Shown here piece by piece: positions 1,311 to 32,589 of a stretch of DNA of 64,000 bases. The stretch is from contig OZ296653.1 in the NCBI GenBank assembly GCA_965655095.1, forward strand, positions 9,920,001 through 9,984,000, written 5' to 3'. The position numbers and the translations under genes are program-made. This DNA comes from Haplodiscus bocki. Taxonomy: Eukaryota. The notes beneath the pieces were generated by a model, which worked only from the letters and a program-made list of their open reading frames with translations, made no database searches and was not told the origin of the DNA. Position 1 is the first letter of the stretch, and each line of letters begins with the position of its first letter.

Positions 1311-1313
1311 AAA

Positions 1314-1556: not shown

Positions 1557-1714
1557 CCAGCTTCGTGCTGTGTATTCCGCGTTATGCGAGTTCTGGCAAG
1601 ACCCGCTAAGATGGCCCTTAAGTTTTAAGGATCTCACGTGAGTACTAGCTAAAACTTCAATTTTTCTTGAAATTTTTTTTGTACATTTTTGCTTTTATTA
1701 TCCCTTTTCCTTTA

Positions 1715-3752: not shown

Positions 3753-4199
3753 GTAGAATTTGTAATTCCGATGTATCTTTTTGGTTTTCCTGTGTCAACC
3801 ACTACGAACACGTTACCTAAAGAAATTTTTATTCCCTGTTATTTCTGTCAAGTCCGCACACATCAAATCCCAATCGCTTTTCGGCCCGAGTCCTCTTTTA
3901 CACCGCATCAATTGAGTATTCACTATCGACTTGAAGGAATTCATTACCACCAACACAGTGAGACGCACCCACTGGTTCAATTTTTCCCCAACACGAACCA
4001 TCCCAACCACATTAAGTCCACAAGTAGTTTCTTCTTCCCAATCCTAACTCAAATCTGGAGAATTTATATTGAATTCTTGTCGCACTACTTTACCGAACCC
4101 CTTGCGATCGTGTACCCAGGTAGTGGTCCCCTCAACTTGATGAACTCAGCCGCTAATAATTTGAAGTAGTTTGATTTCCTTTGAGTTTTTTTTATCACT

Positions 4200-5420: not shown

Positions 5421-8400
5421 GAACGTCTACGCCAGAGGGTCAACGCGCAGACAAAGACACTCCCCCAGGCCCACAAATTGAAACATTGAATTCTGTTGTT
5501 GATCACCGAAGTGTGTTCATTCAAATAACAATTTTTGATCGCATAATCGAAGCGATATGCGACAGTGGAGCAAGTGTGTCATGCCTTAGTAGTGAAATCT
5601 ATGATGCCCTCAAATTGAAACATTCTTTGAGATTGGAACCTGCCCTGAGACAACTTAAAGCTGCAAATCAATTGCCTATTGAGACGCGAGGCGTCGTACG
5701 CCTCCCTATAAGTTTAGGCGGAAGAAAATTTGAACATAATTTTCATGTTTTGTCTAAGTCGGAGGCCGATTGCCTCATAGGACTCGATTTTTTGGAAGAT
5801 CACCAATGTGATCCACTTTTTTCGCAGAAGAAATTGCGAGTGAATGATGATACTTTTGTCCCATTATATCACAAAGTTTATACCATACAAACTGATCAAG
5901 TCTTCCGAGTTGCTTCCACTGACAACGTTTGGATCCCAGCAGGTCATTCGATGATCATACCAGCCCATATCCCAGGATGGAAGCGCCCACCAATAGAGTT
6001 GGCCGCCGTATTCGAGCCGCATGAACGGTTCAAGGTAGACAAAGAGGTCAGTGCTGACCATGTCTTGTTTAATTTCTCCGAGGAAACAATCCCGGTGATG
6101 GTAACAAATACTGGGGATGAAGCGGTCATGATACATAAAGACACTACATTGGGACAATCCGAACTAGTCGCAACGGATAAAATTCAAAACATTAGTACAT
6201 TGAAAAGCCGCAAAAGCCCAAAACTAACCGACAAAAAGGATGCCAAGTACGATTTGAAACTTGTCAAAAACTCTATCGATACTGGTATTTCCCAGGAAGC
6301 AAAAGCAAAGTTCTTTAAACTAATCAATGAGTTTTCTGATGTGTTCTCGAAAAATGAATGGGACATTGGCCAATGCGATGTAACCGCCCACAAGATTCAA
6401 GTAGAACCCGGATCGCGACCAATTAAACTCCCCAACAGAAGAATGCCCTTACATTACAAGGACGATCTACAGGAAAAGATCGATGCTTTCCTAGAAAAGA
6501 AGCTAATCACGCCTTGTCATAGCCCATATAGTGCACCGGCTATGCTCGTCCCGAAGAAAAACGGTAAACTGCGTTTAGTAATAGACTACCGGCAGTTGAA
6601 TAAACAAACAATCAAGTCCTGTTGGCCCATTCCATCCATAGAAGAAATCTTTGACACCTTAGAAGGAAGTGAATTCTTTACCACGATTGATATGTCGTGG
6701 GGTTTCTACCAGCTCCCAATGGCTGAAGAAAGTCAAGATTATACCGCTTTTAGCACGCCTTTCGGATCTTTCAAATGGCTCCGAATGCCTATGGGACTGA
6801 CTGGTAGCCCGAATACTTTTCAAAGCTTGATGGAACAGGTTCTAGTTGGCCTGACCTGGAAGACAACAGTCCCTTATTTAGATGATTGTATCATCTTCTC
6901 TTCTACGGCTGAAGAACACATTGAAAGATTAAGAGAAGTTCTTGAACGGTTTCGCTCTGCGAATCTAAAAATAAACCCAACAAAATGTGAATTTTTTCGA
7001 ACTCGCGTCCCCTTTCTTGGCCATATCATCAGCAAAAATGGTCTAGAGGCGGACCCGGACAAAATTGCTGCCGTTAAAAAGTTTCCCATCCCTACAAATC
7101 CGACCGAAGTAAAATCTTTTCTTGGTTTATGTTCTTACTACCGTCGTTATGTGCAAAATTTTGCTGACATAGCCCGACCACTCCACAAAGCCAGTGAAGT
7201 AACTATAAATTTCAATTGGACACCCGAAGCCCAAGATGCTTTTGAAACTCTGAAATCTCGATTAACAACTACGCCCATTTTGGCTTTTCCAATGATGAAA
7301 GAACCTTTCATCCTGTACACCGACGCTAGCCTAACGGCTATGGGCGCTGTCTTGTCGCAAGTACAAGATGGACAGGAGCGTGCCATCTGCTACGCCTCCA
7401 AAGCTTTCTCGAAAGCCCAAACTAGATATTCTGCGACTAAAAGAGAGTTGTTAGCCGTCGTTAACTTCACACGACACTTCAAACATTACTTGCTTGGTCA
7501 GAAATTCACAATTATCACTGATCATCGCGCCCTACAATGGCTCCATAACTTCAAGGACCCAGATGCACTAACCGCCCGGTGGCTTGAAAAACTTGCCGCT
7601 TTCGACTACGAGGTAGTGCATAGGCCCGGAAAAACAATTGGCCATGCCGATGGTCTATCCCGAACACCACTTAGAGCATTTAATGCAATCGCAACTGAAG
7701 ACCCAGCTGCAGATGCGCCTGAAGAAGACCAAGAATGGCCCAACCGCACGAATGAAAGTCCACCTGATCCCAAACATTTCCAATATTCGGAGATCCAAGG
7801 CGATGTACTGCAATCAACTGACTCCATTGCGCACTGTATTTCAGCTGACTTCAAGCTAGGAGCAGGAATCGCTCGAAGCATTAAGCGACGCTTTCCAACG
7901 CAGTACCCCGACAAAGAAGCCATCGCTAGCGAAGTCATTTGGCCGCAATGGATCCCCGAATCGCAACGCTTCGTGTATCATTTAACAACAAAAGTGCGTT
8001 ATTTCCATCAACCAACGTACAAGGCATTGAGATTATCTCTAGAGGCTATGAAAAACCACGCTGAAAGCAAAAAAGTTTTGCGTATTAGCATGCCCCAGAT
8101 AGGTTGTGGCCTTGATAAACTTGATTGGAGTAAAGTTCGAAAATTGATTAAAGAAGTTTTCCGCCCTACCAACATACAGATCATCGTGTTTCTAAAGCCC
8201 TTAAAAGAACCGCCACGCGCAGGTCAAAACCCAGTTAACTCCTCTGATAATGCAGTTGCAGCAGAAACGCCTAATATTTCCGAAACGTTGACTTCCCTCG
8301 CATCGGCACAGAGAGCCGACCCAGCATTGAAGAATCTTTTTCAATGGGTCATACGTGGTACACCACCAAGTACCCACGCGTTACAAGGACTGCCGCGAGC

Positions 8401-10210: not shown

Positions 10211-10269
10211 CTTTCACTCCTTTCAGAACGCTAATTTCACACCTTTTACCCCTCATATCGTTCTTTTAG

Positions 10270-12595
10270 GCTTCCTTTCCTACTTTCACTTGTCCTTCCC
10301 AATGGCCCGCCTCTTTGTTACACTGTGACCCACTACTCGACTCATCTCAACGATCAGCCAGAAGTTCCAGTCTTCAAGAAAGGCGCTGCCTTCCTTTTCA
10401 AGTGTCACGCAGTCACTTCCGAAAGTGAGAGCAAAGTTCGAGTGTTCTCCCCGTTCCCGAAAATCCCGGATGTCAATCTTACTGGAGCTGAAGAATTGTT
10501 GAGCCTAGCGAAAATACGAATAACCGGAATTGGTGGCATGTATGCCCAAAAAATTTGTGAATTCCAAGAAATCAACAAAACATATGGTTTATTAATGACA
10601 CAGTTGAAGGATCGCGTGGAATTGATCAAGCTTGAAGTGAAACAAGCAACAGATGAGCAAGGAAAGCTCGCAGACGTAATGAAGTCTTTTCTCCCGAAAC
10701 AGTATCAGAGGAACGTGGCGACGCTTCCACGTTCGAAACGATTTATTGGCGCAGTAGCTGCTCTTGCAGCAGGTGCCGGATTGATCCTGGGAGACCCGTT
10801 GAAAGAAGCTGCATGTACAGCTGTCTCGATTTTTAACTTGTGCGATGACACAAGCCGTTTGTCCCAAGACGTGGACCAGATCCTGAAAACGCAGGAAGAA
10901 ACAATAGCGACCTTGCAACGTGTCCAGTCAGCCAATGATGAGAACTTCTTCCTACTGGGTAATGAAGTCCGCGAAACGCAACAAAATGTTAAAAACCTTC
11001 GTGATGCCGTGAATGATCACCTACAGGTTCTCCATGATCGAAAAAATGGAATTCAAGGAGATTTAATTCAACATAAAGAATGTCAACGAAGACAAGCTCA
11101 ACATTCCCTCTTCCTCCAAGAGATTAGATATACCATATCTCATTTGGGTACCTTGTATACTCACATAAAGTCTTACCAAGCTGCGTTCTACGCCTACAAG
11201 ATTAACTTGTTCTCGACGATCTCGTCCCTTGCTAGTGGCCAAATAACCCCCCAGTTCCTCCTACCCCAAGAAATCGCTGACATTGTACGAACACTGTCAG
11301 AAGAAGAGAGTTATCGTGGTACAAAACTTACCCCCGCCATACAGCCTGGCTTCGAAGCTGTCTATTATGAGATACAACTCGTTTTAGAAGTCACGTTAAT
11401 TCCGCGCGGTATATCAGTTGTACTTGGTGTACCAATGAACTCCAAGTCTTCCACTTTCAACGTGTACCATGCTACCCCGCTGTATCAACCGAACGGTGAC
11501 AACAAGACAGCCTCCTTGTTCCAGCTCGCAAAGCCTTTCTTGGCTGTGGCTACTGACGATTCTAGATACGCCGAATTGGATAGTTCCACCTTACAACAAT
11601 GTTCAGGTAACAATCGGATCAGACTTTGTCGCAAAGGTTTCTCAACCACAACTGATGACACCCTCCTATGCCTGAGTTCTTTGATGTTCGATTATGCCAT
11701 CCCAGCATTGCGTAACTGCCCCGCCAATTCTGTGCTTTTACCTGACGCGCCACAAGCTTTTTATTTGGCCGAAGGATTGTATCATGTCATCTCCCGTGAA
11801 CCACTTCTTCACATGAAAAACGCCAGTGATATACATGGTGTCAGTGTTTCAATGATCCCTTGTCACGCCTGCATTTTGAGACCCAGTTGCCACAGTACCC
11901 TAACCCTGAATCAAGGTGATCTAGTTCTTGAACCGGATATGGACTACTGTTCGACGAGCCCAGAGCCCTTCTTTGCCACGATCGAACTGATCCCATCATT
12001 AGAACAAGTCTTCAAACATGTCCCACACTCCAATCATGTCTTTCACGCCTATTCGTTGGGCGAAGCACGTCATTCTGTCCTCAGCAGTGTTCGTATGGAA
12101 TTAGCAGAACTCCCGGACGTGCGACGCATGTCAGTTGATTCAATCGACCAACTAGCACACCCGATTGCGCAGTATTACTCATCAATTTCTCCGGCAACAT
12201 CACAAGCCCTCGAGTCATATCTCCCCTTTCGCACTGCCGTCTTGTTCTCGACTGCTTCGATTACCCTTTCTTTATTGACTTTCACTATCAGTTTTACCTT
12301 GTTCCGCCGTCAATGGAAACGACTTTTTCTTCATCCACACAAGTTCTTCAAAAGTACAAATGGACGACTCTTGGATGTCACGGACAGTCATGAAACTCCA
12401 GATACAGCCATTGATGACGCTTCTGTTTTCATCCAGCTCAGTTTGGACGAATTCAACGCATTAAAAACACTTGCCAGTGAAACCCTGAGACACCCACCCC
12501 ATAATAACTCATATACCACATGCAATGTCCCTCATATTCCTACCCGTGTCTACCCAGACATCACAGCCCCTCATTATTCCGAGTCTACACCATAA
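10270..12595 (+). CDS. env: Env, class I fusion (F-like) glycoprotein; start probably supplied by splicing
   Basis: Signal-like LPFLLSLVL; furin site RSKR (10730-10741) then fusion peptide FIGAVAALAAGAGLILG; heptad repeat; Cys-rich region; TM AVLFSTASITLSLLTFTISFTLF followed by RRQWKR. Confidence 0.9.
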
Positions 12596-12664
12596 TCTAA
12601 CTTAACTCCTTAACATCTTGTTGTTCTAACATATTATACACGTCATATTTAAAATCAGAACACC

Positions 12665-12816
12665 CTGCACTTTCGTGCCCCCTTTAGTACGGTTCCGTAC
12701 TCGGCTTGCCTAGATTCACATCATGGCCCAGCTTTTGCACGTTTCCGTGCCTGCCCTCTTGTACGTTTCCGTACCTGCCCAGCTTTTGTTGGCCCGTTTG
12801 CACGTGTCCGTGCCCA
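12665..12816 (+). repeat. Short imperfect direct repeats between env and ORF4
   Basis: ttgcacgtttccgtgcctgccc / ttgtacgtttccgtacctgccc / ttgcacgtgtccgtgccc. Confidence 0.7.
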
Positions 12817-13008
12817 CTTCTTGCTCAGACTTTGATCTGACCCTTGACAAATTGAGACCAATCATGTCTCCCCTGTCCTATGATTTCAGCGTTGACAGTA
12901 TACGTATCCGTATACGCGTACCACAAAAAAACTCAACAATAAGGACTCGTTTCTTCTCTTCTCCCTTTCCCCTCCCTCTTTTTCTTCTTTTTTACAATAA
13001 ATTGTGAT

Positions 13009-14052
13009 ATGTACTTATCATTTTTTTGTTTCAGGTTTCCTACTAAGCGTCCTTCTGGCTCCCCTCTATACACTTGCAGTGGCAAGGTTGCTGTAATCAA
13101 CCCGGGTGACATCGTCCACATTCTAGACGAGCGAGAATACCGTGTGCTGCGGATTAATCCACATTCTTCAACAGTTGTGCTTCGCCGGGTCGACGCAACG
13201 TCCAACCAACGCAGTTTCATGCGTCCTTCAACATCTGTCTGTCTACTACCCTCTTCTACCCGTGACGCCTCAGTCGAATGTAATGAACCAACCGATAATT
13301 GTATGTGCGAATTGACTCCGCCCCCAGTTCTTCCGGACGTTAACGATGGTTCTACACAGTGTAATCTCCCGGATGTTTGCGCCGCCTCTACACAATGCGA
13401 TTTTGAAGCAGATTCGTATGCCGCCTTCAAAAGTTCTCGATTCGACAGTGTAGATCGACTTGTCCAAGGCTTCGAAGAAGCCAAATTCTCTGCAAATGCT
13501 GCGTTCAAAGAGCTTTGTAACCAAGTTGACGCAGTAAATGAATTAAAAGCCCAAGTTTCACAACTCCAGCAACGAATAGCTACCCTAAATGACGAAAATG
13601 AGGCTCTTCTTAAACGAACATTTGAATTAACTGAAGATGTTTCAACCCTCACTGCTATTACCTCTACACATCGTCACCTACCTGCTCTGCAACGAATGTT
13701 CTTCCATCATCTACAACAACTTCCATTAACAACAAATCCAAACGAACATCCCCATAATCTCTTATTCCATGTAGTTGGATGTGCCCCCTCTTCTTCTCCG
13801 GAAATAATTCAAGAAAACATCAAATGCCTTCTTCAACAGCTGCACCCTGATAAAAATCCTTCTGTTCCTTCTTCTGTCAGCCAATACGTGCCCCTCGTCA
13901 CCATGGCTAAAACAATTCTTCTCAACAAGAACTTATTACCCACATACCGTTGTTGTGGCATGTTCGGAGTTACTAGACAACAAAATGGTCTTCGAACATG
14001 CAGAAAATGTGACCCCTTCTTACGGAAACTGGATGATTTAATGGACTTGTAA
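13009..14052 (+). CDS. Accessory ORF4: coiled-coil plus J-domain (HPD) protein; likely start at spliced AT|G (13035)
   Basis: 347-aa open frame inside the element; heptad stretch ~13500-13650; FHVVGC...IQENIKCLLQQLHPDKN...AKTILLN...TYRCCG aligns with the DnaJ J-domain. Confidence 0.8.
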   Translation: MYLSFFCFRFPTKRPSGSPLYTCSGKVAVINPGDIVHILDEREYRVLRINPHSSTVVLRRVDATSNQRSFMRPSTSVCLLPSSTRDASVECNEPTDNCMCELTPPPVLPDVNDGSTQCNLPDVCAASTQCDFEADSYAAFKSSRFDSVDRLVQGFEEAKFSANAAFKELCNQVDAVNELKAQVSQLQQRIATLNDENEALLKRTFELTEDVSTLTAITSTHRHLPALQRMFFHHLQQLPLTTNPNEHPHNLLFHVVGCAPSSSPEIIQENIKCLLQQLHPDKNPSVPSSVSQYVPLVTMAKTILLNKNLLPTYRCCGMFGVTRQQNGLRTCRKCDPFLRKLDDLMDL

Positions 14053-14095
14053 AGCACACTTTTTCAACTTCTTCCGCTCTTCACTACTTAATTGC

Positions 14096-14129
14096 TTTGC
14101 GGGACGCAAACCCAGTAAAATGAGAGCAG
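14096..14129 (+). promoter_or_regulatory. Pre-PPT hairpin and polypurine tract
   Basis: tttgcg-gga-cgcaaa stem-loop, then purine-rich aaaatgagagcag abutting the 3' LTR. Confidence 0.65.
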
Positions 14130-15141
14130 TATAGCAGCAGAAACTTTCTTAAAACCTAAATTAAATTTTCCTTCATTAAATTTTCTTTCTTAAAACTTGA
14201 ACTAAATTTCATTTCTATTTTCGTCTGATTTATAAACAGCTCGCGCTGAGTCAAGTACCCTCGAGTGCTTTTGCTAAACAAAGCCCCTTTTCATAACAGT
14301 ATTTTACAAACAACAAAATCCTCTTATCACTACTCTGTAATTTACATACAACACTCTTTCTATTCTTTCTTCTTACATGCAATAATCTTCCTTTATAACA
14401 AGTGTACAATTTAATCACATACGTAACGTTTCAACAACTTTAATACAACACATTTCTTATCATTGACATAAAATAACGTTTAATATTTTCCGTTATAATT
14501 CACTGCTAGTATTTTATTATAATATACACTCTCCATAAATACTTCGCACAACAATTACATAGCAGTGCTGTACTTTCTGTTTTGTTTTCGTAACCCGCTG
14601 ACCCTTACCCCTCATCCAGGCCCGCATTTAAATCAGTGCAAATTTCGAAGTCTCTCTTAATCCTGACCAAAAATAATATCCGCCTGAAAATTCCTACTCA
14701 TTCGTCGACAACAACACAACGAAAGAAGGACGACCCAGCAAACAGACGAACTCAGCCGCAACAGTTTCCAGCTCTTTCCCGAAGAAAAGAAGAAGCAAAT
14801 CTCCTCTCTACAATTTGACAACCAGTCCTCCAGAATCTTCAACTTTCTCTATCCAGAAGTGCAATTGCCCCTCTTTGCCTCAACCAACAAAAGACATTAT
14901 GTAAGCGTATAATTTATTTAAACTTTACTTCAAAAATATCTTCCTTTTTCTAATTAAAATTCTTTCCCAAAAAGCCAAAAACATTTTGTATTCACTTGAG
15001 ATATCCCGCTAGCATCCACCAAACCAAAAACACCTAAATAGTAATTTTAGAAATTACTGAAGTACCATTTCCAATAACAGTCGTCCTCCGCATCCAAAAC
15101 TAATTTCTAGCGAACTGTTTTAAAAGCATACGACTGTTACA
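14130..15141 (+). repeat. 3' LTR of element 1 (1012 bp)
   Basis: Repeat of 297-1310, followed by TSD GTAC. Confidence 0.97.
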
Positions 15142-16519: not shown

Positions 16520-17314
16520 AACCCTGGTTACGCCGGCCGTCAAGAACTTCCTGAAAACTTGAAGATCATGTTCCGGACAGTTGCGATGATGGTTCCAGAC
16601 CGCGCCATTATCATCAGGGTGAAACTCGCCAGCTGTGGTTTCCTGGAAAACATTGACTTGTCTGGAAAATTTTACACTTTGTACAAACTGTGTGAAGAAC
16701 AACTCTCTAAACAAGTACATTACGATTTCGGATTACGTAATATCTTGTCGGTTCTGCGAACATTGGGATCCGAAAAAAGAAAAAGTCCGACTGACCCTGA
16801 AAATAAAACGGTCATGCGAGTTTTACGAGACATGAATCTTTCCAAACTCATTGACGAAGATGAAGGATTGTTCCAGTCACTTATCGACGACCTTTTCCCA
16901 GGAATGACCCTGGACACGAAAGGATACCCTGACTTGGAAAGAACAATTGACCGAATTGTAAACAACGCTGGCAATTTGGTCAACCATAAAGACTGGAACT
17001 TGAAAATAATTCAACTGTTCGAGACCCAAAGGGTGCGTTGGGGTATCATGACCCTAGGTCCCACAGGTGCGGGGAAGACAACCTGCATAAACACCTTATT
17101 GAAGTCTTTCACAGAGCAGGGAATCCCCCACAAGGAAATGCGCATGAATCCTAAAGCAATCACTGCTCCCCAGATGTTCGGCAGACTCGACGTGGCCACA
17201 AATGATTGGACAGATGGAATATTCTCAACACTTTGGCGCAAAACTCACAAAGCGCGGGAAAACGAGCACATCTGGCTGGTGCTGGACGGGCCCGTGGATG
17301 CCATCTGGATTGAG
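16520..17314 (+). CDS. Axonemal outer-arm dynein heavy chain (DNAH5/DNAH8-like) exon: end of AAA1 to AAA2
   Basis: tag|AAC CCT GGT ([15 protein letters not shown]), HYDFGLRN, Walker [20 protein letters not shown]|gtgaat. Confidence 0.95.
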
Positions 17315-17683
17315 GTGAATTGAAAACTTTTTCTTCTCTGCGCTCAGTTTCGTAAATAATTTTGAGAAAATGAAAATTTTGGCCAAATTTTGTCACTTTT
17401 TTCAAAGTTGTTTTGAATGTTACAAGGATGAATGGAATATATGCTCCAAGGGAAATTTTGTTTCTTCTGAAGTTTCATCTCTATATTTCTGTCAAAACCC
17501 TTGACTATATTTTGGGTACGTTTTTCGACTGAACTAAATAAATAACTCATGCAAAAGTCACCTTCACTCGCTCGAAAACCTTGAGCAAAACTTCGAGGCA
17601 GGTAAGGGACCGCATATCAAGATATTACGATGACTGAAACAGTCTAACTGAACATTCTGCAATATTTCTTTTCCTCATTCCAG

Positions 17684-19155
17684 AATTTGAACTCAGTATT
17701 GGACGACAACAAGACTTTGACTTTGGCTAACGGAGATCGAATCCCGATGGCTGCCAACTGCAAAATCATTTTTGAGCCTGATAACATCGACAACGCTTCA
17801 CCAGCTACCGTTTCCAGAAACGGAATGGTCTTCATGTCCAGTTCTGTCCTCAATTGGAGTCCAATCATCTCTGGATGGCTTCGTGACCGAAAACGAGAAG
17901 AGGGTGATATTATCAAAGCTCTGTTCGCAAACTCATTTCAAGTCATTTACGACTACAGCGTTCAGAACTTGGTTTACAAAATGAGAGTTCTGGAATGCAT
18001 GATTGTCAAACAGATGATTCGGCTGATGGACGGGTTGATACCTGTTAGGGAGGAACGAGACGCTCCCACGGCCGGAAGAAAGTTTCTTGAGGCATTGTAC
18101 ACCTATAGCATAATGTGGAGCATCGGTGCGTTTTTAGAATGGGATGATCGCCGAAAGTTGGAAGAGTTTTTGCGAAACAGCAAAGAAATTACGAACCCGA
18201 TGAATATGCCAATTGTGGAAAACGCTTCGAGTAATACGATGTACGATTATTACGTAACATCGGATGGCGAGTGGAAACATTGGAGATCCCAAGTAGAGGA
18301 GTATGTCTACCCGACTGATCACACTCCCGATTTCAACTCTATTTTAGTGCCGAATGTTGACAATGTCAGAACTGACGCTCTGATTTCAACTATTGGTAAA
18401 CAACAAAAACCGGTTTTGCTTATTGGCGAACAAGGAACCGCAAAAACCGTTATGATCAAAGGCAATATGCTGAAGAACGACCTGGAAAAACACGTTACCA
18501 AAAGTTTGAACTTCTCAAGCGCAACTACGCCGTACATGTTCCAAAGAACAATCGAAAGCTACATCGATAAACGTATGGGTAGCACCTTTGGACCTCCAGC
18601 AGGTAAAAAGATGACAGTTTTTGTTGATGACATCAACATGCCAATCATCAACGAATGGGGAGACCAGGTAACCAATGAAATTGTGCGTCAGACTATAGAA
18701 ATGAGTGGGTTCTATAACCTTGACAAACCCGGAGATTTCACTACTATAGTCGATGTCCAGTTCATAGCGGCTATGATTCACCCGGGCGGGGGTCGAAACG
18801 ACATTCCAATGCGACTTAAACGACAGTTTTGCATTTTCAACTGCACTTTACCCTCCGAATCTTCGATTGAGATGATATTCAGAAAAATCGGGTGCGGTCA
18901 TTATTGCAGAGAGCGAGGTTTCAGAAGCGACATTATTGAATTGGTCAATAAATTGGTTCCACTGACTACGATTGTGTGGCAAAAAGTGAAGAAGGTAATG
19001 TTGCCGACTCCTGCCAAGTTTCACTACGTGTTTAACTTGAGAGATTTGTCGAGAATCTGGCAAGGAATGATCAACACGATCAGCGATGTAGTCAACACAG
19101 AGCAAACTTTGATTGGATTGTGGAAACATGAATGCCAACGAGTCATTTCCGACAG
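17684..19155 (+). CDS. Dynein heavy chain exon: AAA2 to AAA3
   Basis: cag|AAT TTG AAC ([20 protein letters not shown]), [32 protein letters not shown], ends AG|gtaag; in phase with the previous exon. Confidence 0.95.
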
Positions 19156-19646
19156 GTAAGATCAAAATTTAAGATAGAAGTATTTGGTTTAGATGCCGCT
19201 CCGGTATTTTGCACCCGTTAATTACTATTTTGAAAATATTTTTTTTGCAAACCGCAGATTAACTGAAGCTCATTTGAAAAACCTTCCGATTTTTGTTTAT
19301 GTTTATAAACAACGTACAACACCATTTTTCTGGACAGCTTCTCAAAAAAAGGATCACTTAAAATCGAACTTCGGAAAATGAAAATTACTTTTTTCACAGC
19401 TTTGCAGATCAATGAAAGGTGTTCATAACTAACTTTATGAAATGATTCCTACATCAAATTTTGATTTGAAGCTTCGAACATGACAAAAACATCTCATGCA
19501 AGCAAATGCATGAGTGAAAGTGAAGAAGCGGGAACTAAAAACAGTCTTTTTGAAGTAAAAATAAATTAATTCACTCACAAATATTTCGTTCTATAAACTT
19601 TGTACATCAGCTCAACGGTCAAGGCCAACAATCAGTTTGTGGTCCA

Positions 19647-20278
19647 CTAATTTGCGTGTTGAGAAGTTCGTTTTTCCGCCGCAGTCAAAGTAGATCTTCT
19701 GTATCGCAATGTGTCGCGTCTACATTTTGCAACATCGCTGCAACTTGATAGTATTTCCGTGTAAGCCTCAACAGCTCTGTTTGGCGGGATCATCATCAGC
19801 ATTTCTCCGAACTTCATTTTCGGGCCAATACTTTTCAAAATCACCAACTCAATTTCTAGAAACATGTCGGCACTTTGAGTCAGAGTTCTGTACAATCTGA
19901 CACTTTCTTCAAACGAAACAGAAATTAGGAGAGCTTTCAAGAGCGCACACATGATTGAGGAGTCGTATCTTTGAAGCGAATTTGAAATGGCTCTCGTCAT
20001 GTTTGTATGCAGCTCTATCAGGAGGAAGATTCCCTCGAAATAGTTCGGAAAGAAGGCTTTCTTAGATTCGTCAACTGAACGACAAAATTCGGTCAGCCAA
20101 GAGGACAGTTTTGAAAGAGTTTTCGCAGAAACTTGAGATGCAAAGTTGACGAGAAGGTTCTGAACACCTATGTGAAACTTGCGACATAGAACGCAAGGGC
20201 AAGGAATGGAGTCACAAGTATGTTTCACGTTCGGGTTAAAGTTTCGTCTCCGTCGAAGACCCGCGTTGGTTTCTTTCT
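19647..20278 (-). CDS. Unidentified antisense ORF/exon, possible 3' part of a nested gene
   Basis: About 200 open codons, helical-looking composition, no recognised motif. Confidence 0.35.
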
Positions 20279-21089
20279 CTTAAAAATGCATCAAACATAT
20301 CAGCCAAATAAACGACATCTATGATACGCGAAAACTCAAAGAAACCCGAAGCTGACAATTTTCATTCCCACACATTTGAACAACTTTTGCATTAGACTAG
20401 AACAAACATGGCCGCCCAGCCCAAGGCGGATAGGACTTCAAACTTTTTTTATGATTTTTTATTTGCGCGCTCTGACTACTACTATGATGACCAGTATGGT
20501 CCCTCCTGTACTCCCACGCAGCTTTGCTGCGTTTTGAAAATTCTTTTTCTAAAATGTTGCACGAAATTCCTCATTTCGGACGATGTCACAAAACGTCGTC
20601 GCAAAAAGCGTCCAAAACAAAAACCGAGTAACACTTAAAGTACATCGTAAAATTAAAGTTCCGCGAAGTCCTAAAAACGGTGAACATCGTTTATCGTCGG
20701 TACGTTTTACATAACTTCCATTTTAGTATATCCTATTCGCAAACAAAACGATACATGTTAAGCGGCTTCATGTCTTTTCAGTCGAGGGTGTTTTCGTGTT
20801 TTAGTTGATCACAGATAAATTCAGTTTTTAGTTACATAGAGGCAAAGCTGCGCTTTGCAACACTTGCGCCAATGGCATACTAGTGAACAAATCGTAAAAG
20901 TATAACTGCTTTTTGAAGAAGCCACAGCACAAAAACTTCTGATTAAACAAATTTAATTAACTTAGTTAAATTATATGAGCTTATATACAAGTGTAACAAG
21001 TACGAACAACTATTGCAGTCAATTCGCCTTTTATTCAATTAAAACAGGCGCACACGCTGTAAAATTGGCCATGATAACAATTTTTGCAA

Positions 21090-21271: not shown

Positions 21272-22294
21272 TCACATTTGAAGTAAAAAAATGCAGGTGA
21301 AATCCGGAAGTGAAAAAAACTCACCAGGAACACAGCATGCCAACTCCTCTGTAATGCCTTTGAACGGGGTCAGAAGTCTCAGCCAATCAAAATTGGGGTC
21401 GTACATGAAGCTCTTATTTGACTGTATCAACTGCACCGCTTGAGAATAAAGCGGACTCTCTATCTTCACTTTTCTGCTATCTTTGCTGGTTGATCGATTC
21501 AAATTCGAGACAGCGCTGGAATCTTCTAGAATGTAGAGCTTGAACAACCACTCAACCACAATTTCCAAGTCTTCTGACGTTCGTATTATTTGTCCTGTTC
21601 CTTGCATGAGAGATTTCAAAAGAAACTTGAAGGCGTTGTTTTGGAGAATGGAAAATCCCTTGAACAATGTCTCCATCTCCTCCGCACGACTTCCGGTGCA
21701 GAAACTAATTGAGTCTTCGATTGATATAGCCCCAGTAGAGACGAGAGCAATTAGAGCCGATGAAAAGAAATAAGGATGTAATTTGAACATATCATGGGCC
21801 AATCGTGTTAGTTTGTGCGTGGAATACTGAATGATTTCGCTCTTTTGCAGAACATACTCATCATCATTGGATGTACCACATGTAGATGCCTCTAGTGTCG
21901 ACGAAGATTCTTCGAAAATAAGCGACGCATTTCCAGAAACCACGCTCGTGAGTTCTTCAACTTTGATGGTCGACAAAGTTTGCGATAGTTCCTCGACGGA
22001 TCCTAGAGCCGACAACGCTGAAGCTTTTCCCAGTTTATCGAAAGAGCTGAATACGTAGCCAGGACAGTAATGCAAAGTGTTGTAGTGGTCTACAATTTCG
22101 AGTTTGGACAAAAATTTGAAGAGACGCATGTTTGAGTAGAGTAGCTTAGTTACAATTTGGGGATTGCAGCCTTGGGCCATGTTCAGGAGGTCTTTGAGGA
22201 TTTTGGGGCTTTCTTTCACTCGGCGAAGCAATAAGACAATCCATTCCGGACTGCTTATGATCAAGTTTAGAGAGGAAGCGTTTACCGAATAGCT
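21272..22294 (-). CDS. Unidentified antisense exon (~340 codons), probable nested host gene
   Basis: Long ORF with a phase-0 ttttag acceptor at 22295, matching the upstream mini-exon. Confidence 0.5.
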   Translation of the reverse strand, partial: SYSVNASSLNLIISSPEWIVLLLRRVKESPKILKDLLNMAQGCNPQIVTKLLYSNMRLFKFLSKLEIVDHYNTLHYCPGYVFSSFDKLGKASALSALGSVEELSQTLSTIKVEELTSVVSGNASLIFEESSSTLEASTCGTSNDDEYVLQKSEIIQYSTHKLTRLAHDMFKLHPYFFSSALIALVSTGAISIEDSISFCTGSRAEEMETLFKGFSILQNNAFKFLLKSLMQGTGQIIRTSEDLEIVVEWLFKLYILEDSSAVSNLNRSTSKDSRKVKIESPLYSQAVQLIQSNKSFMYDPNFDWLRLLTPFKGITEELACCVPGEFFSLPDFTCIFLLQM

Positions 22295-22457: not shown

Positions 22458-22605
22458 CTTGAATAAAAGCACCCAGAAATCAGGTGCAGTGACACAATCA
22501 ATTCAAAATTTGAACAGAGGCGAAAACGTTCACAAACAAGCATAGGCAAAATCGATGACTGCATCATTTTTGAAACTCGACGTCTCGAAAATCGGCGAAA
22601 ATTGT

Positions 22606-23047
22606 TGTGATATTTTTGCATATTAAAATTTATTAACTTAATTGCAGCTAATTAATATCAACCCTCACTAAACAATTTAACCCTAAATTGGAGCTATGAT
22701 TATTTATTCTTACAAAAAACCCACCCCGGAACGCAAATAGTAATTTCCGGAACAATAAAAAAGCAATAACAATAAATTATGGCCGCTCCCTAAATACACG
22801 CATGAGCAGTTTTTTAATTTAAAAAATATACTGGAAAATTTCCTCATGACAGGAAACAATAAAGTGAAGTAAATAAAAGATTGATGACGATAACTTGGCG
22901 ACAAAAAAAATTTGGGCTTCTATTGAATAGCTGAATGCGAAGGATCGACAAAAAAATCTTTCTGTAAAGTCTTCCTCACGCCCGCACTGAAGAAAGCTAG
23001 AACAAAAGAGATATCAGAATTGGTAGAAAAACCCAAGGAGTTTCACA
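22606..23047 (+). repeat. 5' LTR of element 2 (TGTGA...TTTCACA)
   Basis: Aligns to 31692-32137 with many substitutions. Confidence 0.9.
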
Positions 23048-23062
23048 CGGTGACAGGAATGA
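23048..23062 (+). promoter_or_regulatory. Degenerate PBS (cggtgacaggaatga), same type as element 1
   Basis: Directly after the LTR; shares GGTGACAGGA with the element 1 PBS. Confidence 0.7.
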
Positions 23063-23129
23063 AGTGAGGACAACTCCTAAATCGAAAAGGCAGCAGCAAA
23101 CCCTCAACCACATATCACACTCAACCCGT

Positions 23130-24191
23130 TCCGCGGAAAACCAGATGTAAACTGGCCAGATTTTGGAAGCTTACTCAGAAGCTTAATCAATGTTGGAAAC
23201 ATTGCAGCAGCAAACCAACCACAATTCCTCCAACTTCATTTACTAGATCAAGCATTACAATTCTTCAGAACTCTACCGCAAGCAACAAAAGATAAGTTCG
23301 ATCTATCCATTACAGCCCTCAGAAACCATTATTGTAACCCAAACCTCAGGGAATTACAAACTCCAAAACCTGAAATTTGACCACAAAACCGGAAGCCCAA
23401 AAGACTTCTTGGTTCAAACACAAATCAAAGCAGCACAAGCCTACCCTGACCCAGTATTTGCTCCTATACTACCACCAAATGACCAAGGAGAAATAGACGG
23501 AGTTGCAGCAGCCCAGGCAGCTAACCAAATCATTCTGGATAATGCTGCGAATGAAAGAAACAGACGAATAAAGGAATATTTCACAAACGCAATGCCAAAC
23601 TTCTTTAAGAGAAAATTATTGGACCAAAATGAAGCAGCGACAGAACAGGACTTATGTACAATGGCCAGACGACAGATGGTATTGTTCGAGCTATGCCCAA
23701 GTGACGACGGGTCGAGGGATGCATTCAATGAAGTGAGCTCATCACTTTCAGAAAATTCGGTCGGTGCACTAACGAAGCTCACACAACAGGAAGAACTGAA
23801 ACAACAACAGAATGACCTCTCGAACAGAATCAGTTTGTTGAACGACAACAAGACAAACCAGAACTACGCCAGAAATAACCAACAACAGTACTACAGAGGA
23901 AACAACAGATTTAACAACCCACGAGAAAATAGAGGACGGGAAAATTTCAATATCAGAGGACGTGGTAGATTCAAAAATAACAGAGGATATTACGGCATGA
24001 ACTACAACAGGTTCAACAACCCACAAATACAAGAAAAATCGAATAACGGACATATTGCACAGACAACTTACTCAAAACAAATTTGCTACACTTGCGGATA
24101 CCCAAATCATTATGCGAGGGACTGCAATCATAGAAAACCAGGATACCGAAATCAACAAATCCCTTTCCAAACAGCACCAAAAAACGAATAG
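23130..24191 (+). pseudogene. gag: gag remnant of element 2
   Basis: Zinc knuckle CYTCGYPNHYARDC, RG/N-rich region, A AAA AAC slip site at 24179-24185; 5' boundary approximate. Confidence 0.85.
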
Positions 24192-27100
24192 AGCCACGCC
24201 AGTATGATGACGCACCACAGGAGGCAAAACGGACACAAGAAAATGGAATCACTGCATGTATCTCACTTGAAGGAGACCTTTCATATGTGCCCTTGAAATT
24301 CTCAGCAACTCAACAGAGAAGAGCACTAATAGACACCGGTACTTGCGCAAATGCAATTAGCAAAGTAGCTTCCGGACAAGTTACACCTGTGCGTGGCCAA
24401 ATAGAATTAACATTCTCGATAGCACAACACTCGTTCAAAAAATTTTTTAGTCTTACCAAGCACAAATAATATTATACTGGCAAATTCGTTTTTCAAAAAC
24501 AAATCCATTGCACTGTACCCTAGAAAAAACCTCATGAAACACCCGGACATCACACTTCAATTAAACGAAATACTGCCACACTCAACAGAAAAAGAAGCCA
24601 AGCCGCAATCTACAGTGAGAACATTGGAAAAAAATAACGATTGTCCCATATCAACAAACAACGCTTAAATGTGGTCTCATATCAAAAAGATGTTCACTGA
24701 CGTCTGTGGAATAGTGGAACCAAAACTGAGTTTTGAGGTCAAGAAGGGATTGTGCATCACATCGTCCTTATCTAGGACAGACTCAAATGGATACTTGTAT
24801 CTTTCCGCTTTAAATCTACAAAATATTGATATTACAATACCAAAAAATTCGGATATTGCGTTCTTTAAATTCCTTTTACCACAACAAGCAGGAACGTTGA
24901 CTTCAATTGACACCCAACTACTAACTTTAGCAAAATTCATAAACCCAGACGACTTTGTCAAGGAAATAAACCAATTAATTATTGATGAAGAATTCAACTC
25001 AGACTCTCAACCACCTAGATCCAAACCAGAATGCAAAAACATTTGGTTTCCAACGCCGGAAACCTGCACATATCCAGAAGGACTGCAGGGAGTTGAGAAA
25101 CGAACTCAAGACGAGTTATCAAAACTCCAAGCATTGGACCAAATTGACCCGCAAACTAACCAAAGTTATCGAACATAATTGCTACAAATATTCAAATGGA
25201 AAAACTCAGTACTTAATGAGGCACAGAAACAAGTTGAAGAATTGTTAGTTGAAATTTCAGATATTTTCGCGAAACATAGATTCGATGTTGGCTACAACTC
25301 CGAAACTAGGATGAAGCTTACACCTGACCATGACCAGCCGGTCTATACACAGAGTCCACCAACACCTATTCATCTACGCGAAGAACTACAAGTTGAACTT
25401 GCTCTACTTCAATACTTTGGGATAATAAACAGCCTCAACCATTCGCAGTATAGTAGCCCAACCTTTGCCCATCGTAAAACTAACGGAGAACTCAGAATTT
25501 TAGTTGACTTACGCCGAACAAATCATTTCCTCCTACACGACTATCATAAAAACAACCTCCCATATCCACAATGGCCGACACGACAGCTCAATTCGCAGGG
25601 AAATCACTATTCAGCAAACTTGATTGTTCTCAAGCATACCACTGTGTACAAATGGCAGACCCAGTTTCAGTACAATTATTAGCTTTCAAATTCGCTTCAA
25701 GGACCATGGCCTACCAAAGATTAGCTAGAGGACTAAATAGAGCAGTAACAAGATTCAGTGCATTTGAACGCAACTATCTAGAACCATGCCTTTCCGCTAA
25801 TATCTGCACCCACTTCATGGACGACATTGGACGTGGAGTAGATTCCCCAGAACAACTTCCCTACCTTAGACAAATTTTTCAATGCCTCCGGAGATCAGGA
25901 CTCAAACTGTCACCTGAGCAATGCGTTTTTGGATCTGAACAAGTTAGCTTCCTTGGTAATTTATTACAAAAGAAGGCCTAAAACCCGAAAGAGGATTGAA
26001 AAATTACTACGAACACTGGAAGTACCAAAATCAAGGAAAAAAGTGGAGACTTATTGGCTGCCTTCAATTCTTCAGAAACTTCATTCCGAACTTAAACGAA
26101 CACCTGATACCATTCTACAAACTCCTCAGAAAAAAATGTTTCATTTGAACATGCGGAAGAAATAATGAAAGCGTTCGAAACCCTCAAAGAAAAACTACAA
26201 ACGACAGCAACTCAAACTCTTCGACTAGCGAAACCAGGTCTACAGTATGCAATCTTCTGTGACGCAAGTTATCATTCAAGATGAGCAAAAGTATATCAAA
26301 CAATTGGCACGATTGCTGATTGATAATGGCATCCTGAAACGTAAATACTACAATCATGACGGCCTGACCCTATACAATCAATTATGTGTCCCGAAACACA
26401 TTTCGAAAGAAATATTATATCGAATCCACAATTAACCAACGGGCGGACACTTGGTAATAACCAGGACAATTGCAGAATTTAGAAAACGGTACTACTGCCC
26501 GAATTACATTGAGAAGATCGCGGATTATATCAAAAACTGTTCTTCGTGCCTTCAGGTTAAACAAGTTCGGCCGTCTAGACTGAAACCACCATTACAAGAG
26601 ATCACCACAACAACATCTTTTCCAGGAGACATATTGCAAATAGACATTATGGGAGCATATCCTACGACAGCTTACAAATATATCCTGACAGCAATTAATG
26701 TTTTCTCGAAATACTTGTTTGCAGTACCGTTGATGACGGTCAGTGCTTCAACAGTAGCCTCAGCGCTAGTTTCCACAATGTTCAACCACAGCTATATCCC
26801 AAAAGAAATAATGTCGGATTTGGGAACGCAATTCGTCTCAGAACTTCTACACGAAATTACAAAACTGCTGGAGATTAAAAATTCTCATGCTTCCCTAAAA
26901 CACCCACAAACAAAAGTGGTAGTAGAAAGAACACACGCAGCTTTGGCCCGTATCTTGAAACTGAATAGCAATCAAGCATTCACGATTTGGCATAAATACG
27001 TACCATTGGCAACTTTCATCCATAACACGTCACACCACACATCGATTGGATGCTCACCTACAGTTCTATTTCACGGCAGAGAACCAATGAAACCCTTGGA

Positions 27101-27947
27101 TTTGCGATTCTAGAGCGATTGTAATCCAAAATCGGCATTCAACTATGACTTTGATGAATCGCTCAGGGATGAAATGCTAAAAAAGTTCTCGAACGCGAAA
27201 GAAAGCCTAGCGAAGTCATTTGCTCGATATCGAAGATATTATGACCAAAAAGCAAGAGCAAACCCATTAATAGAGCAAACGTTTTGCCTACTTTTGAATC
27301 CGAAACTGACTGAACAATCTGCTTCCAGTCCGAAACTCATGCAAAAATGGTAAGCACTATACCGTATCGAGAAAATACTAACAGACTCCAACTACTTGAT
27401 TTGCAAAATAGGAACGAATTTTACACAAAGTGTACACAAAATTAGACTGAGACCAATCGCTCCACAATACCCTGTTGACGATATTGCAGATATCAACCCA
27501 CAAAACTTCAAAACAGACCCATTATTGGGAAAACATAGAGGAGAGCAGGATTACTTTGACAAAGGTCTCCCGGCATTACTGGAGAATGCGAAACTCAACG
27601 TACACACAACAGCCCCCAAAAACTTTGATAACTCCGTCAGAGTTTCTATCTCGCTCGGAACAACTGTACAACCACCAACAATAGTACCAGCCCCGGCTAT
27701 GGCGGCACCAGCAGTAGTACCATCAGAAAATCCAGGAAACAATCCAGCGGTAGCGCCCAGACGAGTTCTAACACCACCAGAACACCTTACAGCACAACTT
27801 CCAGACTGGTCAGAAGAATCAGATGAGTCCGTAGGACCAATCGCACCGTTAAGACGATCAGAGAGATTACAAGATCAGAACCAAAACAGATACCAAAACT
27901 TCAAATTCTTCGAAGCAGCAGGACAACAAATACGGAAAACGCAATGA
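24190..27947 (+). pseudogene. pol: pol remnant of element 2 (PR, RT, truncated RNase H, IN)
   Basis: ALIDTG; FSKLDCSQAY, FMDD; IFCDAS followed by a jump to the integrase linker (~26280); QIDIMG/MSDLG/VVERTH; many frameshifts. Confidence 0.9.
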
Positions 27948-28119
27948 AGCAAACAAACATCCCAGGGTGAAAAAAAAGAAACCCGTAATTTTGTTGACCT
28001 CCTCAATAATCGCCGCAAAAAACGCCAGCAGATGCAATTTGTACAACGAACAGGCGCACAACAAAGTGGATCTGACAAAGAAACAACGCCCTGATATTAA
28101 TGCAATTGAACATGACACA

Positions 28120-28541
28120 TGGCGGAACATCAGAATTGTCACAGAAAAGCACTTTTGTAGAAATTGCAGCATGGGTCAGTGCGTTTCTTCAGAATTCCAC
28201 ATGGGAGCAGGAATATCAGCAAAATTTAACCAACTTTACCCACAAATTGAACAAAAAGCATCGAAAAATCTGATTGCAGGATCAGTTTTGACTAATATGA
28301 CAAGAACTCGAGACGGTGGATTGACAATTTAGTGACAAAATTCAAGTTTTTCCATAAACAATTCTACGAATCGCTAAGAATGAGCCTCAAGTTGATGCGA
28401 AAACACGCCGAATACAACAGAGTTCACCATATTCGTCTACCAAAACTTGGATGTGGACTTGACAACCTCCAATGACAAGTAGTGCACGAAATTTTGGAAC
28501 AAACCTTCCAAGGTTCGCCTGTGAAAACAACAGTATGCTTC
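28120..28541 (+). pseudogene. Decayed TARG1-like macrodomain downstream of integrase
   Basis: SMGQCVSSEFHMGAGISAKF, frameshift, then NLVTKFKFFHKQFYESLRMSLKLMRKHAEYNRVHHIRLPKLGCGLDNLQ*QVVHEILEQTF (hand-translated). Confidence 0.88.
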
Positions 28542-29394
28542 CCCCAAACTAGTCACTCCAATGTCTGAAATCAAACACTGCCGCAATCGCAAAACCTAGT
28601 CAGAAAACAGGCAAAAAAACTCAAATTATGACCAATTTGACTGAAGAAATTCTAACACTTCTGGATAAAAAACACAACGTAAAACCCATGGAATGAAAAT
28701 TTTATACAAATAACGATAAAGGACAGGCTTTTAGACAGTGTAGAGATGAAATGCGAAACCAAAATTTGACTATTTCAAGAAAACCTCACAAATTGATGTA
28801 TTGTGCCACTGCGACTGAACAAAGTTAAGATAGAAAAGTACAGTATATTCGCTCACAGTGCAGCCCACAACACGCTCTACACGATAGGGTATTCTATACA
28901 ACCATACGAGCTGCGCTATATGAGGAAACTGATCACAATGTGCCGATATTGGATTTTTAAAGTCCCAATTTTTCAAAATTGCTACTGCGAGTACCAAGAT
29001 AAAGATAGACGAGACTGATATATGAACTGCAGCAAACGGCCTCACCGAGAAAGTTACGTTACCTCCTACAAAAGTCACCTTCCACCTTCCCACAACCCTT
29101 CAAATGGACTCCACCACAACAACTGCAACCCATCTTCATCCATACAATTCAAACCCAACAATGTGGCTGTTGTACATCCCTTTCTATTAAGGCCACCACT
29201 GAAAAGATAGCAGCTTCAGCATCATGGACATTGACGAGGAAACACCCGAATTTGAGGACCTCTTCTACTCACTCCAGACACTAGTCAACACCATGAAAGG
29301 GCAACAACAACTGAAAGCCAAGCTTATTGACCTCTTGGACAACATGAAGATTGAGCTATTCTAATAATGTTCGTACAAGAACCCTACGTTTCAG

Positions 29395-31559
29395 AATCTT
29401 AGACTTCTGCCCAAACTGCTTTCATTAATTATTTTCATTCACATAGCTCAGGCTAATACCCGCCAAGGCAGTTTGGACAAAGGCAATTTCTTCAATGAAG
29501 AAACAAAAATCCTCTTGGCAGAGAAATTTATCAATGTCCAATTTTTGGTCCCATTCCCACGCTTTGAAATGACCCTTAATTCGAGTGTTGACCAAATTGC
29601 ACAGTCACTCCAAATTATGTGGCAAACCCCAACTTTTTTCTGCTATCTCAACTTCACAAATACAAGTGAAATAGATTTCAAAATGGATTGGCTCCTCAAA
29701 GAAACAAAAAAGGAAATTTCTTTTGCACAAGCTGGGCTGCTAAAAATCAAGAGTGACGTAGAATCATTCCTAAAGGGTACGCAAGCGAACAGAAGGACCC
29801 GGAAAAAACGAGCACTTCCGTTAGCAGCCGCAGCGGTAAGCGCAATCGGTTTATTCGGAGGTGGCATCATGTTTGGCTCTGGAGACTGCGGTATTATGGG
29901 TATTTTTGGCTCGTGTCAGGAGAAGGCAAAACAGAATGCACAGAATAATGAAAAACTGGGAGAATACGCGATATCTTTGGGTCAAAATATTCAACAGCTG
30001 GCAAACGCAACGGATGCCAAGTTTTTCCGAGTATCAAAGGAACTAGAGATGTTACATGGCATTCAAAGACAAATCGTAGAGACCCAAAATTAAAACCGGA
30101 GAACAATAGAAAAACAGTTCGACGCGTTTCAACAAAACATCCACGAGATGAGAAACTGTGATCAATGACTCTATACAAGACAAGTGAACTTGAACTTTGA
30201 TACCATCTCATCATTCTTGTCCTTGATTCACAGTAATGTCAAGTCCTACAGAGCAGCACTGTATGCATTCCAAATGAACATCATGAACGCCATACCCTCC
30301 TTACTGACCCAATATGTGCCGAACTCTTTGTTACCGAAAGAATCCCTGGAAATTATTCTGCAGCAGGTGGCCACAGAACAGCTACAATCACGTGATAGAT
30401 TAACTTTGGCAATTCCCCTCGATGAGCTTCTGGCGTATTATGACGCGAGATTACTCATAGACGTCCTAACAGACAATAGCTTGCTGATGACGATGTCAAC
30501 TCCACTAGCATCCCGCCAAACAGTTTTCACGGCCTACAAAGCAATAGTGGTCCCCATGCCACAATTGGAAAAAGAGTATGCAATCCAGTGGACTGTAGAA
30601 ACGGAGTACATCGCCATATCAGAAGATCTCAGAGAAACAGCATTGGTCACACGTGATCAATTGGGAAAATTTATCGGATCCAACAAATATAAGATTTGTC
30701 ACGAATCGACGGCGACCGACACACCGGATGCGCCATGCTTGGCAGTACTGTATTTTGGAAACGTTATGGACGCAATTGAAGTTTGCGACACTGAAGCTGT
30801 GACACTCCCTCTAAAGGAAAAAGCAACGAACCTAGGTTATGGAATATGGCTCAGAAGCTCAACTTCACCCAATTTCAAGTTTCGAGAATCCTATATGAAT
30901 GCAACAACGACAGCAGGATCCACAATGGCCGATCGTTGTCAGATATGCCTGGTTAGCCTAAGCTGTGGCAAACAACTGATCGGTTCCAACGTTAGAATCA
31001 GATCTGATCTAGGCACCTGTATGACAGTTCCACCACTGAAACTAAATGTAACACAGCCGGAACCAATGACACGACTATTCAGCCTCATCGCAACAGTGGA
31101 CCAGCTTCCTCACTACAACACACGCGTGGAAGTGAATATTCAACTGCTGAACTCTTGAAACTGGAACTACAACCCCAACCGGATCACTCATACCTTTCAG
31201 ATTTGAACTATATTGCACAACCAATTGCACAAAAATTTACAGCACTGAAGCCGTTCCTGCAGAAACAGCTCAACAACTATCTGTCCTGGAAAATTCACCT
31301 TGCAATTGGCTTGGTAGTGTTCCTTGTTAGTACAACACTACACCTGGGTGTTACTTATGCATTACATAGATACAAGAAACTACATAAAGTTCTACCGTTC
31401 TCCCATAAACTGGACAAACGGAAGGTGCCATTGAAATCGATCATGATGGTGGAAGACCAACATCTGGAAGGACTGGCGAACGATGAGAAATTTCCGTGGA
31501 GAAACGAAACAAAATTTGCTGATCCCCAAATCCCAATTAAGAGAAACAAGAAACCCTGA
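29395..31559 (+). pseudogene. env: env remnant of element 2 (F-like fusion protein)
   Basis: tttcag acceptor then signal-like NLRLLPKLLSLIIFIHIAQA; RTRKKR|ALPLAAAAVSAIGLFGGG; TM IHLAIGLVVFLVSTTLHLGVTY; contains stops and a frameshift. Confidence 0.85.
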
Positions 31560-31691
31560 ACCCGATGCCCCAATATACTCGCAACTCAAAAGGCAACTAC
31601 GAACAGGGCAAACTTGAAAGAAAAAACTACTCACTTGATGGACATACCAAGGAACATTTCAAACCAGCGAGTTGAATAGTTAAAGTCGGCT

Positions 31692-32137
31692 AGTGAAATA
31701 TTTTTGAAAATTAAAATGTATTACTCTAATTGGAGCTAAGTAATATCAATCCTCACTAAACAATTTAACCCTAAATTGGAGCTATGATTATTTAATCTTA
31801 CAAAAAAACCCACCCCGGAACGCAAATTGTAATTTCCGGAACAACGAAAAAGCAATAGAATTAAAATATGGCCTACCCCCTAAATACACGCATGAGTAGT
31901 TTTTTTTAAAAAAAAACATATTGGAAAATTTCCTCATGACAGGAAACAATAAAGTGAAGTAAATAAAAGATTGATGACGATAAATTGGCGACAAGAAAAA
32001 TTTGGGCCTCTATTGAATAGATGACTGTAAAGGATCGACAAAAAATTCTTTTCTGTAAAGTCTTCCTCACGCCCCGCTCTGAAGAAAGCTAGAAGAAAAG
32101 ATCTCAGAATTGGTAGAAAAACCCAAGGAGTTTCACA
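31692..32137 (+). repeat. 3' LTR of element 2
   Basis: Aligns to 22606-23047; ends acccaaggagtttcaca. Confidence 0.9.
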
Positions 32138-32589
32138 ATTGTTAAAATAGTTCTGAGATTGTCGAGTTGAAAAGTGAGGAAAAATTAACAATTGCCCCTG
32201 CATATTTGAATATGGGCGTCTAAACCCGCCCAAAACTTATTCCTTCAAAAAAAGATTTTGCGAGAGTATCTTTCAAAATTAACATCCTTTACCGGCCAAA
32301 TACTGGATGCATCAAAATTTACTCCTGCAAAAATTTCCTACACAATTTCAACGCCAAATTCAAGCAGTGGAGCGAGACAGTGAAGTGCAAGTGGGAAAAT
32401 GGAAAACAACTTCAGCGAAACATCCAGTTTGATATCATACAATTTGATAGTTGTAAACAGTCAAAAAAAGTACCGCCGTATTCATATCCATGACACTTGC
32501 TATCGCAAGTATAACACATAGGCAAAGCAAAGCTTTGCAAAAAAAGACTTTTTATCACTCATAAAAAAATTTGTCGACGTGGTTACATC

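Follow-up and report, generated by a model that had tools for sequence, protein, structure and literature searches.

The second of two LTR retroelements in the window (the whole stretch analysed, 64,000 nucleotides, G000:C6:9920001-9984000) is an old, defunct copy from a Ty3/Gypsy lineage that carries env and has a TARG1-type macrodomain at the end of Pol. Overall, we put at roughly 55% the probability that this lineage gained its ADP-ribose eraser sideways and used it against ADP-ribose added by the host. Exons from a dynein heavy chain gene (16520-19159) lie between the two elements, together with two long minus-strand ORFs (19647-20279 and 21272-22294) that match no Pfam family. Positions ~32594-64000 are filled by a tandem array in which a ~1,316-base unit is repeated at least 24 times at 95-100% identity, with similarity to neither element; neither the array nor any other part of the window gave an Rfam or tRNA match.

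Element 2 (22606-32137, plus strand) has the paired LTRs and flanking target-site duplications of an LTR retrotransposon, with ATTGT present at both 22601-22605 and 32138-32142. The 5' LTR (22606-23047) and 3' LTR (31692-32137, start approximate) are 90.3% identical, 399 of 442 aligned bases being the same. Directly after the 5' LTR comes a primer-binding-site-like stretch with the core GGTGACAGGA, followed on the plus strand by a broken gag with one CCHC knuckle (23050-24191; knuckle 24084-24125) and by pol remnants (24190-27947) comprising a protease-like DTG (24332), an RT with FMDD (25814), an RNase H remnant, integrase and a post-integrase linker. This pol is riddled with stops and frameshifts; its order, PR-RT-RH-IN, is that of Ty3/Gypsy elements and agrees with that of open-frame relatives. 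Beyond the macrodomain there is an accessory-ORF remnant (29026-29337), homologous to a 228-aa ORF without a Pfam family in the relative L061, and then a broken env of the F type (29368-31559) with a furin-like RKKR site (29800).

The macrodomain itself lies at approximately 28114-28544 on the plus strand, the place of the C-terminal Pol domain in relatives. An earlier, sequence-only reading of this DNA had placed the motifs MGAGI (28201-28215), LVTK (28329-28340) and LGCGLD (28446-28463) downstream of integrase and had described a frameshift and a stop as hiding most of the domain; the motifs do follow the integrase core (rve within 26436-27110), and the two lesions were located near 28300-28330 and at 28473, respectively. 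The upstream linker has lesions of its own, with a stop at 27945 and, near 28070-28110, a change of frame, which make the macrodomain look detached from Pol. Since Pfam Macro under-calls this domain (element 1 scores 17.6 bits against a cut-off of 22), PDB sequence matches and our own profiles were used instead. The 3' piece alone matched human TARG1/OARD1 structures at E 5e-13 and, with a profile built solely from non-retroelement macrodomains, the region scored 78.3 bits, compared with 8.7 bits for the best of 200 base-shuffled versions. The best sequence match was to TARG1 and not to MacroD, the next PDB family being weaker by many orders of magnitude. The Lys (in LVTK) and Asp (in GCGLD) at the catalytic positions are still kept in this broken copy; between these and Lys84/Asp125 of TARG1 we assume an offset in residue numbering.

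Element 1 (297-15141, plus strand) is a young Gypsy element with gag at 4185-5420, pol at 5399-10210, env at 10235-12595 and an extra ORF at 12943-14052, between LTRs (297-1310 and 14130-15141) which are 99.7% identical. It carries an OARD1/TARG1-type macrodomain in the open pol frame (7775-8200, plus strand; human TARG1, E 9e-30), and this lies between RNase H and integrase, upstream of the latter as had been claimed. The remaining contrasts drawn between the elements also hold: their LTRs are not significantly similar (E 0.054 at best in blastn), the target-site duplication of element 1 is of 4 bp (GTAC) and that of element 2 of 5 bp, and element 1 has YLDD (6875) and two CCHC knuckles as opposed to FMDD and one. 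The third ORF of both elements is homologous to class I F glycoproteins; the env of element 1 has Fusion glycoprotein F0 as its Atlas top match (0.94), with no Pfam or PDB match, and is homologous to that of element 2 (26% over ~300 aa, E 1e-26). The GGTGACAGGA core directly follows the 5' LTR in both elements (after 1310 and after 23047), though their RTs are distant, which suggests use of the same primer tRNA, presumably that for Leu. Element 1 also has an internal tandem duplication of 1,768 bases (1292-3066 / 3060-4834, 99.7%) that includes the leader and gag up to its midpoint, whilst the fourth ORF after env (12943-14052) encodes a coiled coil with a weak DnaJ-like C-terminal match (E 5e-4, below the cut-off) and has homologues 3' of env in most fetched members of the clade of element 1.

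A DNA search with the macrodomain region of element 2 gave 40 matches, 30 of which were fetched. In this sample, which was selected by the region itself, the macrodomain was found downstream of integrase sequence in 28 of the 30, the exceptions being L042, without a macrodomain match for that query, and L059, without an integrase match. Integrase and macrodomain share one open frame in relatives (701 aa in L052, 978 aa in L067, at least 1471-1523 aa in L074 to L077 and at least 1587 aa in L112), from which it follows that the macrodomain is the last domain of Pol and not a separate gene; the possibility raised beforehand, that intact relatives of element 2 would lack it, is not borne out. Protein searches of the genome gave 5,782 to 6,294 first-look candidates, 150 of which were scored each time. 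The RNase H-integrase position was seen in 14 fetched elements, all with an F-type env (12 belong to the clade of element 1; the other two, L110 and L111, have a divergent macrodomain), and 16 fetched elements revealed a third position, between protease and RT. Where two positions had been claimed there are thus three distant lineages with three placements (post-integrase, RNase H-integrase and protease-RT), and in fetched elements the macrodomain is always within Pol, never in env or as a free ORF.

Some of these loci are unusual in other respects. L072 (G000:C1:120170095-120180094) consists of tandem ~1.5-kb units, every one of which contains a macrodomain of the element 2 type; neither RT nor integrase is present in 10 kb there. 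At L111:2-5707 pol and env are joined in a single open frame that lacks part of integrase, probably as a result of internal deletion, and the divergent macrodomain at L110:1806-2225 is without the glycine-rich GAGIA stretch and keeps Lys and Asp.

Every positional class formed its own starred clade in the RT and integrase trees (26 rows), and mean RT identity between the clades of elements 1 and 2 is ~27%; the two are therefore not the sister lineages that the earlier reading had allowed for. A database search with the RT-RNase H of the element 2 lineage found 328 proteins, of which 120 were listed, and the RT tree was built from the 26 of these that continue for 400 residues or more beyond integrase, with P0325 added and 93 dropped as too short; none of the 120 listed bears an informative name, and no reference Gypsy elements are among the rows of the tree. 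Within the 100/99 clade containing element 2, the macrodomain is present in 10 of 11 informative database proteins (from the 120 listed of 328), the eleventh, P0294, diverging from the sequence of its sister just before the expected start of the domain. Outside the clade, one of 16 proteins has a partial macrodomain, and the 15 macro-less ones are known without genomic context, such that a separately encoded macrodomain or env is possible there. From this difference it follows that the macrodomain entered the lineage of element 2 long after its RT had split from that of element 1, and the phylogeny places the gain after the split from the nearest macro-less relatives. Two of these relatives, P0340 and P0376, have a dUTPase match before RT, another host-countering accessory domain.

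The alternative of one ancient capture pre-dating the split of the lineages, with vertical inheritance, moves within Pol and many losses, is improbable. Repeated loss would be needed in 15 of the 16 outgroup proteins over several branches, and the macrodomain, which evolves faster than RT within lineages (48-60% identity, compared with 77-85%), must then have diverged less than RT between them, where the identities are 36-38% and 25-32%, respectively. A mixture-model tree of the macrodomain does pair the post-integrase with the protease-RT class (96/82), as does the RT tree (94/98), in line with such a capture; however, the integrase tree does not pair these lineages.

The sequence-only reading had proposed either independent capture or relocation of the domain. 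Separate placement is upheld by the RT distance, the nested gain and the third position, but the macrodomain trees speak against capture from the host, and relocation fits better. The best host OARD1 candidate, which ranked first for a query with frog OARD1, is located at L116, where two genes stand in tandem with no retroelement genes within 7 kb; these adjoining OARD1-like genes (L116:3344-4327 and 5592-6815, minus strand) differ in that one has a long N-terminal extension and the other a repetitive C-terminal tail. In a 57-row macrodomain tree each positional class is monophyletic, with 731 of 1000 bootstraps putting all three classes on one side; a 33-row mixture-model tree places them together at 91/82 (unstarred), a grouping which could be long-branch attraction on 140 columns. 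No retroelement class groups with the host candidate in any of 1000 bootstraps, and the AU test does not reject the domains of elements 1 and 2 as one clade (p 0.72). The simplest reading of these trees, and of identities between lineages that are higher for the macrodomain than for RT, would be a single retroelement pool of macrodomains, moved between lineages, and transfer between elements, rather than fresh capture of a host gene, is the likely source for the lineage of element 2; the domain would have been acquired through recombination, with another element of the same host lineage as donor. Independent captures of cellular OARD1 by each lineage, for the same counter-defence role, are favoured by the three positions and the nesting of the gain inside the lineage of element 2, by the fact that the classes are about as similar to L116 (35-42%) as to each other (36-38%), and by the post-integrase domains of P0243 and P0261, which come from other sources, have unrelated RTs and lie elsewhere in the tree. 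The L110 domain, which joins the other three classes in none of 1000 bootstraps, may also be a separate capture. However, with the possible clade of elements 1 and 2 and the absence of any grouping with L116 against them, such captures are rather unlikely to explain the pattern as a whole, and transfer between elements is preferred.

That the domain is a neutral passenger, useless to the element, is very improbable. In its favour, the copy in element 2 is broken and most pairs show more rapid change in the macrodomain than in RT or integrase; however, gag, pol and env of element 2 are all broken, so that damage to the macrodomain is uninformative on its use. In eight of the nine pairs with measurable dS the macrodomain dN/dS is 0.06-0.30, well below 1 (four of 13 pairs were saturated), and in the ninth, a pair of close copies, it is 0.63 with 0.81 for RT. 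The Lys at the catalytic position is kept in 111 of 113 and the Asp in 104 of 111 aligned retroelement matches (some places being counted twice), across lineages, and both are invariant in alignment A1. By these measures the macrodomain is conserved as a working enzyme would be, under purifying selection, and the retroelement macrodomains are probably active ADP-ribosyl hydrolases.

TARG1 is described as removing ADP-ribose from proteins and nucleic-acid ends and as relocating to DNA damage (PMC7050489), and as acting also on ADP-ribosylated RNA bases (bioRxiv 10.64898/2026.03.31.715305). An eraser of this kind would free the element's RNA, proteins or cDNA ends of ADP-ribose added by the host. 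As any position in Pol suffices, the benefit probably lies in synthesis and packaging with Pol, and not in fusion to one enzyme. Whether the packaged eraser would have a counter-defence role, by analogy with viral macrodomains acting against antiviral PARPs, we judge to be evenly balanced. The main rival is a helper of integration or repair, which would clear or read ADP-ribose that PARP1/2 add at integration gaps or cDNA ends; it would serve Gypsy elements of any kind, irrespective of env, and no dedicated defence would be involved. The action of TARG1 on ADP-ribosylated nucleic-acid ends and its movement to DNA damage agree with this, as do the confinement of the domain to Pol and the occurrence, among the profile matches, of TARG1-type fusions with the DNA-repair enzymes ligase III, PNKP and UDG. 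However, with the usual cleavage of Pol a macrodomain at the protease-RT position would be parted from integrase, and five elements that appear to be env-less are without the domain; a helper role is a weaker candidate than counter-defence.

Those five elements belong to the comparison with envelope genes, in which the sequence-only reading had linked the macrodomain to env-bearing elements. An F-type env was found in 16 of 19 fetched post-integrase loci, with none seen at L066, L072 and L112. In the protease-RT lineage env was reached in three of 16 loci, because most of the available DNA stretches end short, and is a PF24664 fusion glycoprotein (E 2e-24), which is class III and unrelated to the F type; the other 13 gave no env match in a stretch ending 2.3-3.4 kb past integrase. 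The view of this lineage as env-less was rejected on account of the PF24664 glycoprotein in the neighbouring DNA. PDB sequence searches with both env types gave no useful match. Six elements without a macrodomain were picked by integrase score: L106, with a PF24664 env, and L101, L102 and L124-L126, with no env-sized ORF, L101 and L102 alone among these being shown to be closed by LTRs. The latter five represent three env-less-looking families, tallied as two lineages and picked regardless of macrodomain. By lineage there are four with env and macrodomain, one with env alone, two with neither and none with a macrodomain alone. These counts are consistent with the link in that all four macro-positive lineages have an env, of two unrelated types, but the association is not significant (p = 0.14, seven lineages) and L106 is a counter-case. 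The RT of L106 is 52% identical to that of element 1, yet a PF24664 env stands in place of the F type, an env swap among close lineages.

The earlier reading had further suggested recurrent selection by a host defence based on ADP-ribosylation, and had named expanded or fast-evolving host PARPs as something to look for. A search of this single genome gave 31 PARP-domain matches at 26 loci; at nine of the 15 strongest SF1-helicase matches a PARP domain is encoded on the same strand, no more than 5 kb away. For comparison, 17 PARPs and three ZNFX1 genes are given for Aplysia (PMC9334734). Among these nine loci, the three that were fetched all have helicase and PARP fused in a single ORF of 1774-2012 aa, two with a ZNFX1 domain match. 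These intronless fusions of an SF1 (UPF1/ZNFX1-like) helicase and a PARP (L117:189-6224, L118:889-6558, L119:533-5854 and six more G000 loci, at least nine in all) include one, L117, with two PARP domains. They are a possible family of nucleic-acid-sensing ADP-ribosyltransferases. In metazoans ZNFX1 is described as a sensor of dsRNA with an antiviral role (PMC9334734). A candidate opponent for the elements' eraser thus exists; however, nothing ties the family to the elements, and the defence itself is inferred. The fuller scenario, in which a host ADP-ribosylation defence built on an expanded helicase-PARP family was answered by a TARG1-type eraser that swept through at least three enveloped Gypsy lineages, with two unrelated fusogens and a different Pol position in each, should be considered speculative. 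If true, it would represent a counter-defence module traded between transposon families, the retroelement counterpart of the coronavirus macrodomain. ADP-ribosylation as an anti-retroelement defence has been little tested in invertebrate-type hosts, and as thousands of first-look candidates, several young families and a gene family that is a candidate opponent are found in one genome, the question is testable with isolated domains.

Fish retroviruses with macrodomains were already known, as, separately, were Gypsy elements with an env. Our literature search, thin on subscription papers, found no report of this macrodomain in a Gypsy Pol or of the three-position pattern, nor did the accessible portions of PMC6338049, PMC4695847 and PMC12859917 have anything on a macrodomain in a Gypsy Pol. 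In automatic annotation such Pols do occur (XP_048515211.1 of Athalia rosae, P0243, P0261 and P0272), with RNase H-integrase (doubled in Athalia) and post-integrase placements in other sources; where RT is present it is 22-30% identical to that of the element 2 lineage, i.e., unrelated. Among the best 150 profile matches, eight carry RT, RNase H or integrase; some of these probably stem from the lineage of this host itself. Elements 1 and 2 resemble the env-carrying Ty3/Gypsy errantiviruses (Chary and Hayashi 2026, PMC13524379) in their gag-pol-env arrangement, Gypsy domain order and the presence of both env types in one host, F-type and gB-type env being described there as widespread in Gypsy elements. 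The words 'macro' and 'OARD1' are absent from the main text as available, the word matches displayed from its supplement being species names; the unnamed 'pseudo' and 'mini' domains which it reports between RNase H and integrase might include the macrodomain, which bears on novelty.

For both classes of domain the best structure match is human TARG1/OARD1/C6orf130 (ALC1-like class; PDB 4j5r, 4j5q and 2l8r; E 9e-30 and 6e-22), a free 17-kDa protein, whereas the domain of the elements is embedded in Pol and known from sequence alone. Its Lys and Asp align with the catalytic pair of TARG1, Lys84/Asp125 (PMC8120803). The macro domain ORFs of teleost epsilon-like endogenous retroviruses (Basta et al. 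2009, as described in PMC4977317, the citing paper) provide another case of enveloped retroelements with a macrodomain; however, these are Retroviridae with additional ORFs, whereas here the domain is inside the Pol of Gypsy elements, at three positions. An accessory enzyme would have moved between distant LTR lineages and work from three places in Pol. The model for its use is found in the Coronaviridae, Togaviridae and Hepeviridae, whose polyprotein-borne macrodomains are described as ADP-ribose erasers countering host PARPs (PMC8120803). Those are mostly of the MacroD type and belong to RNA viruses without RT, whereas the domain that the retroelements have chosen is of the TARG1 type.
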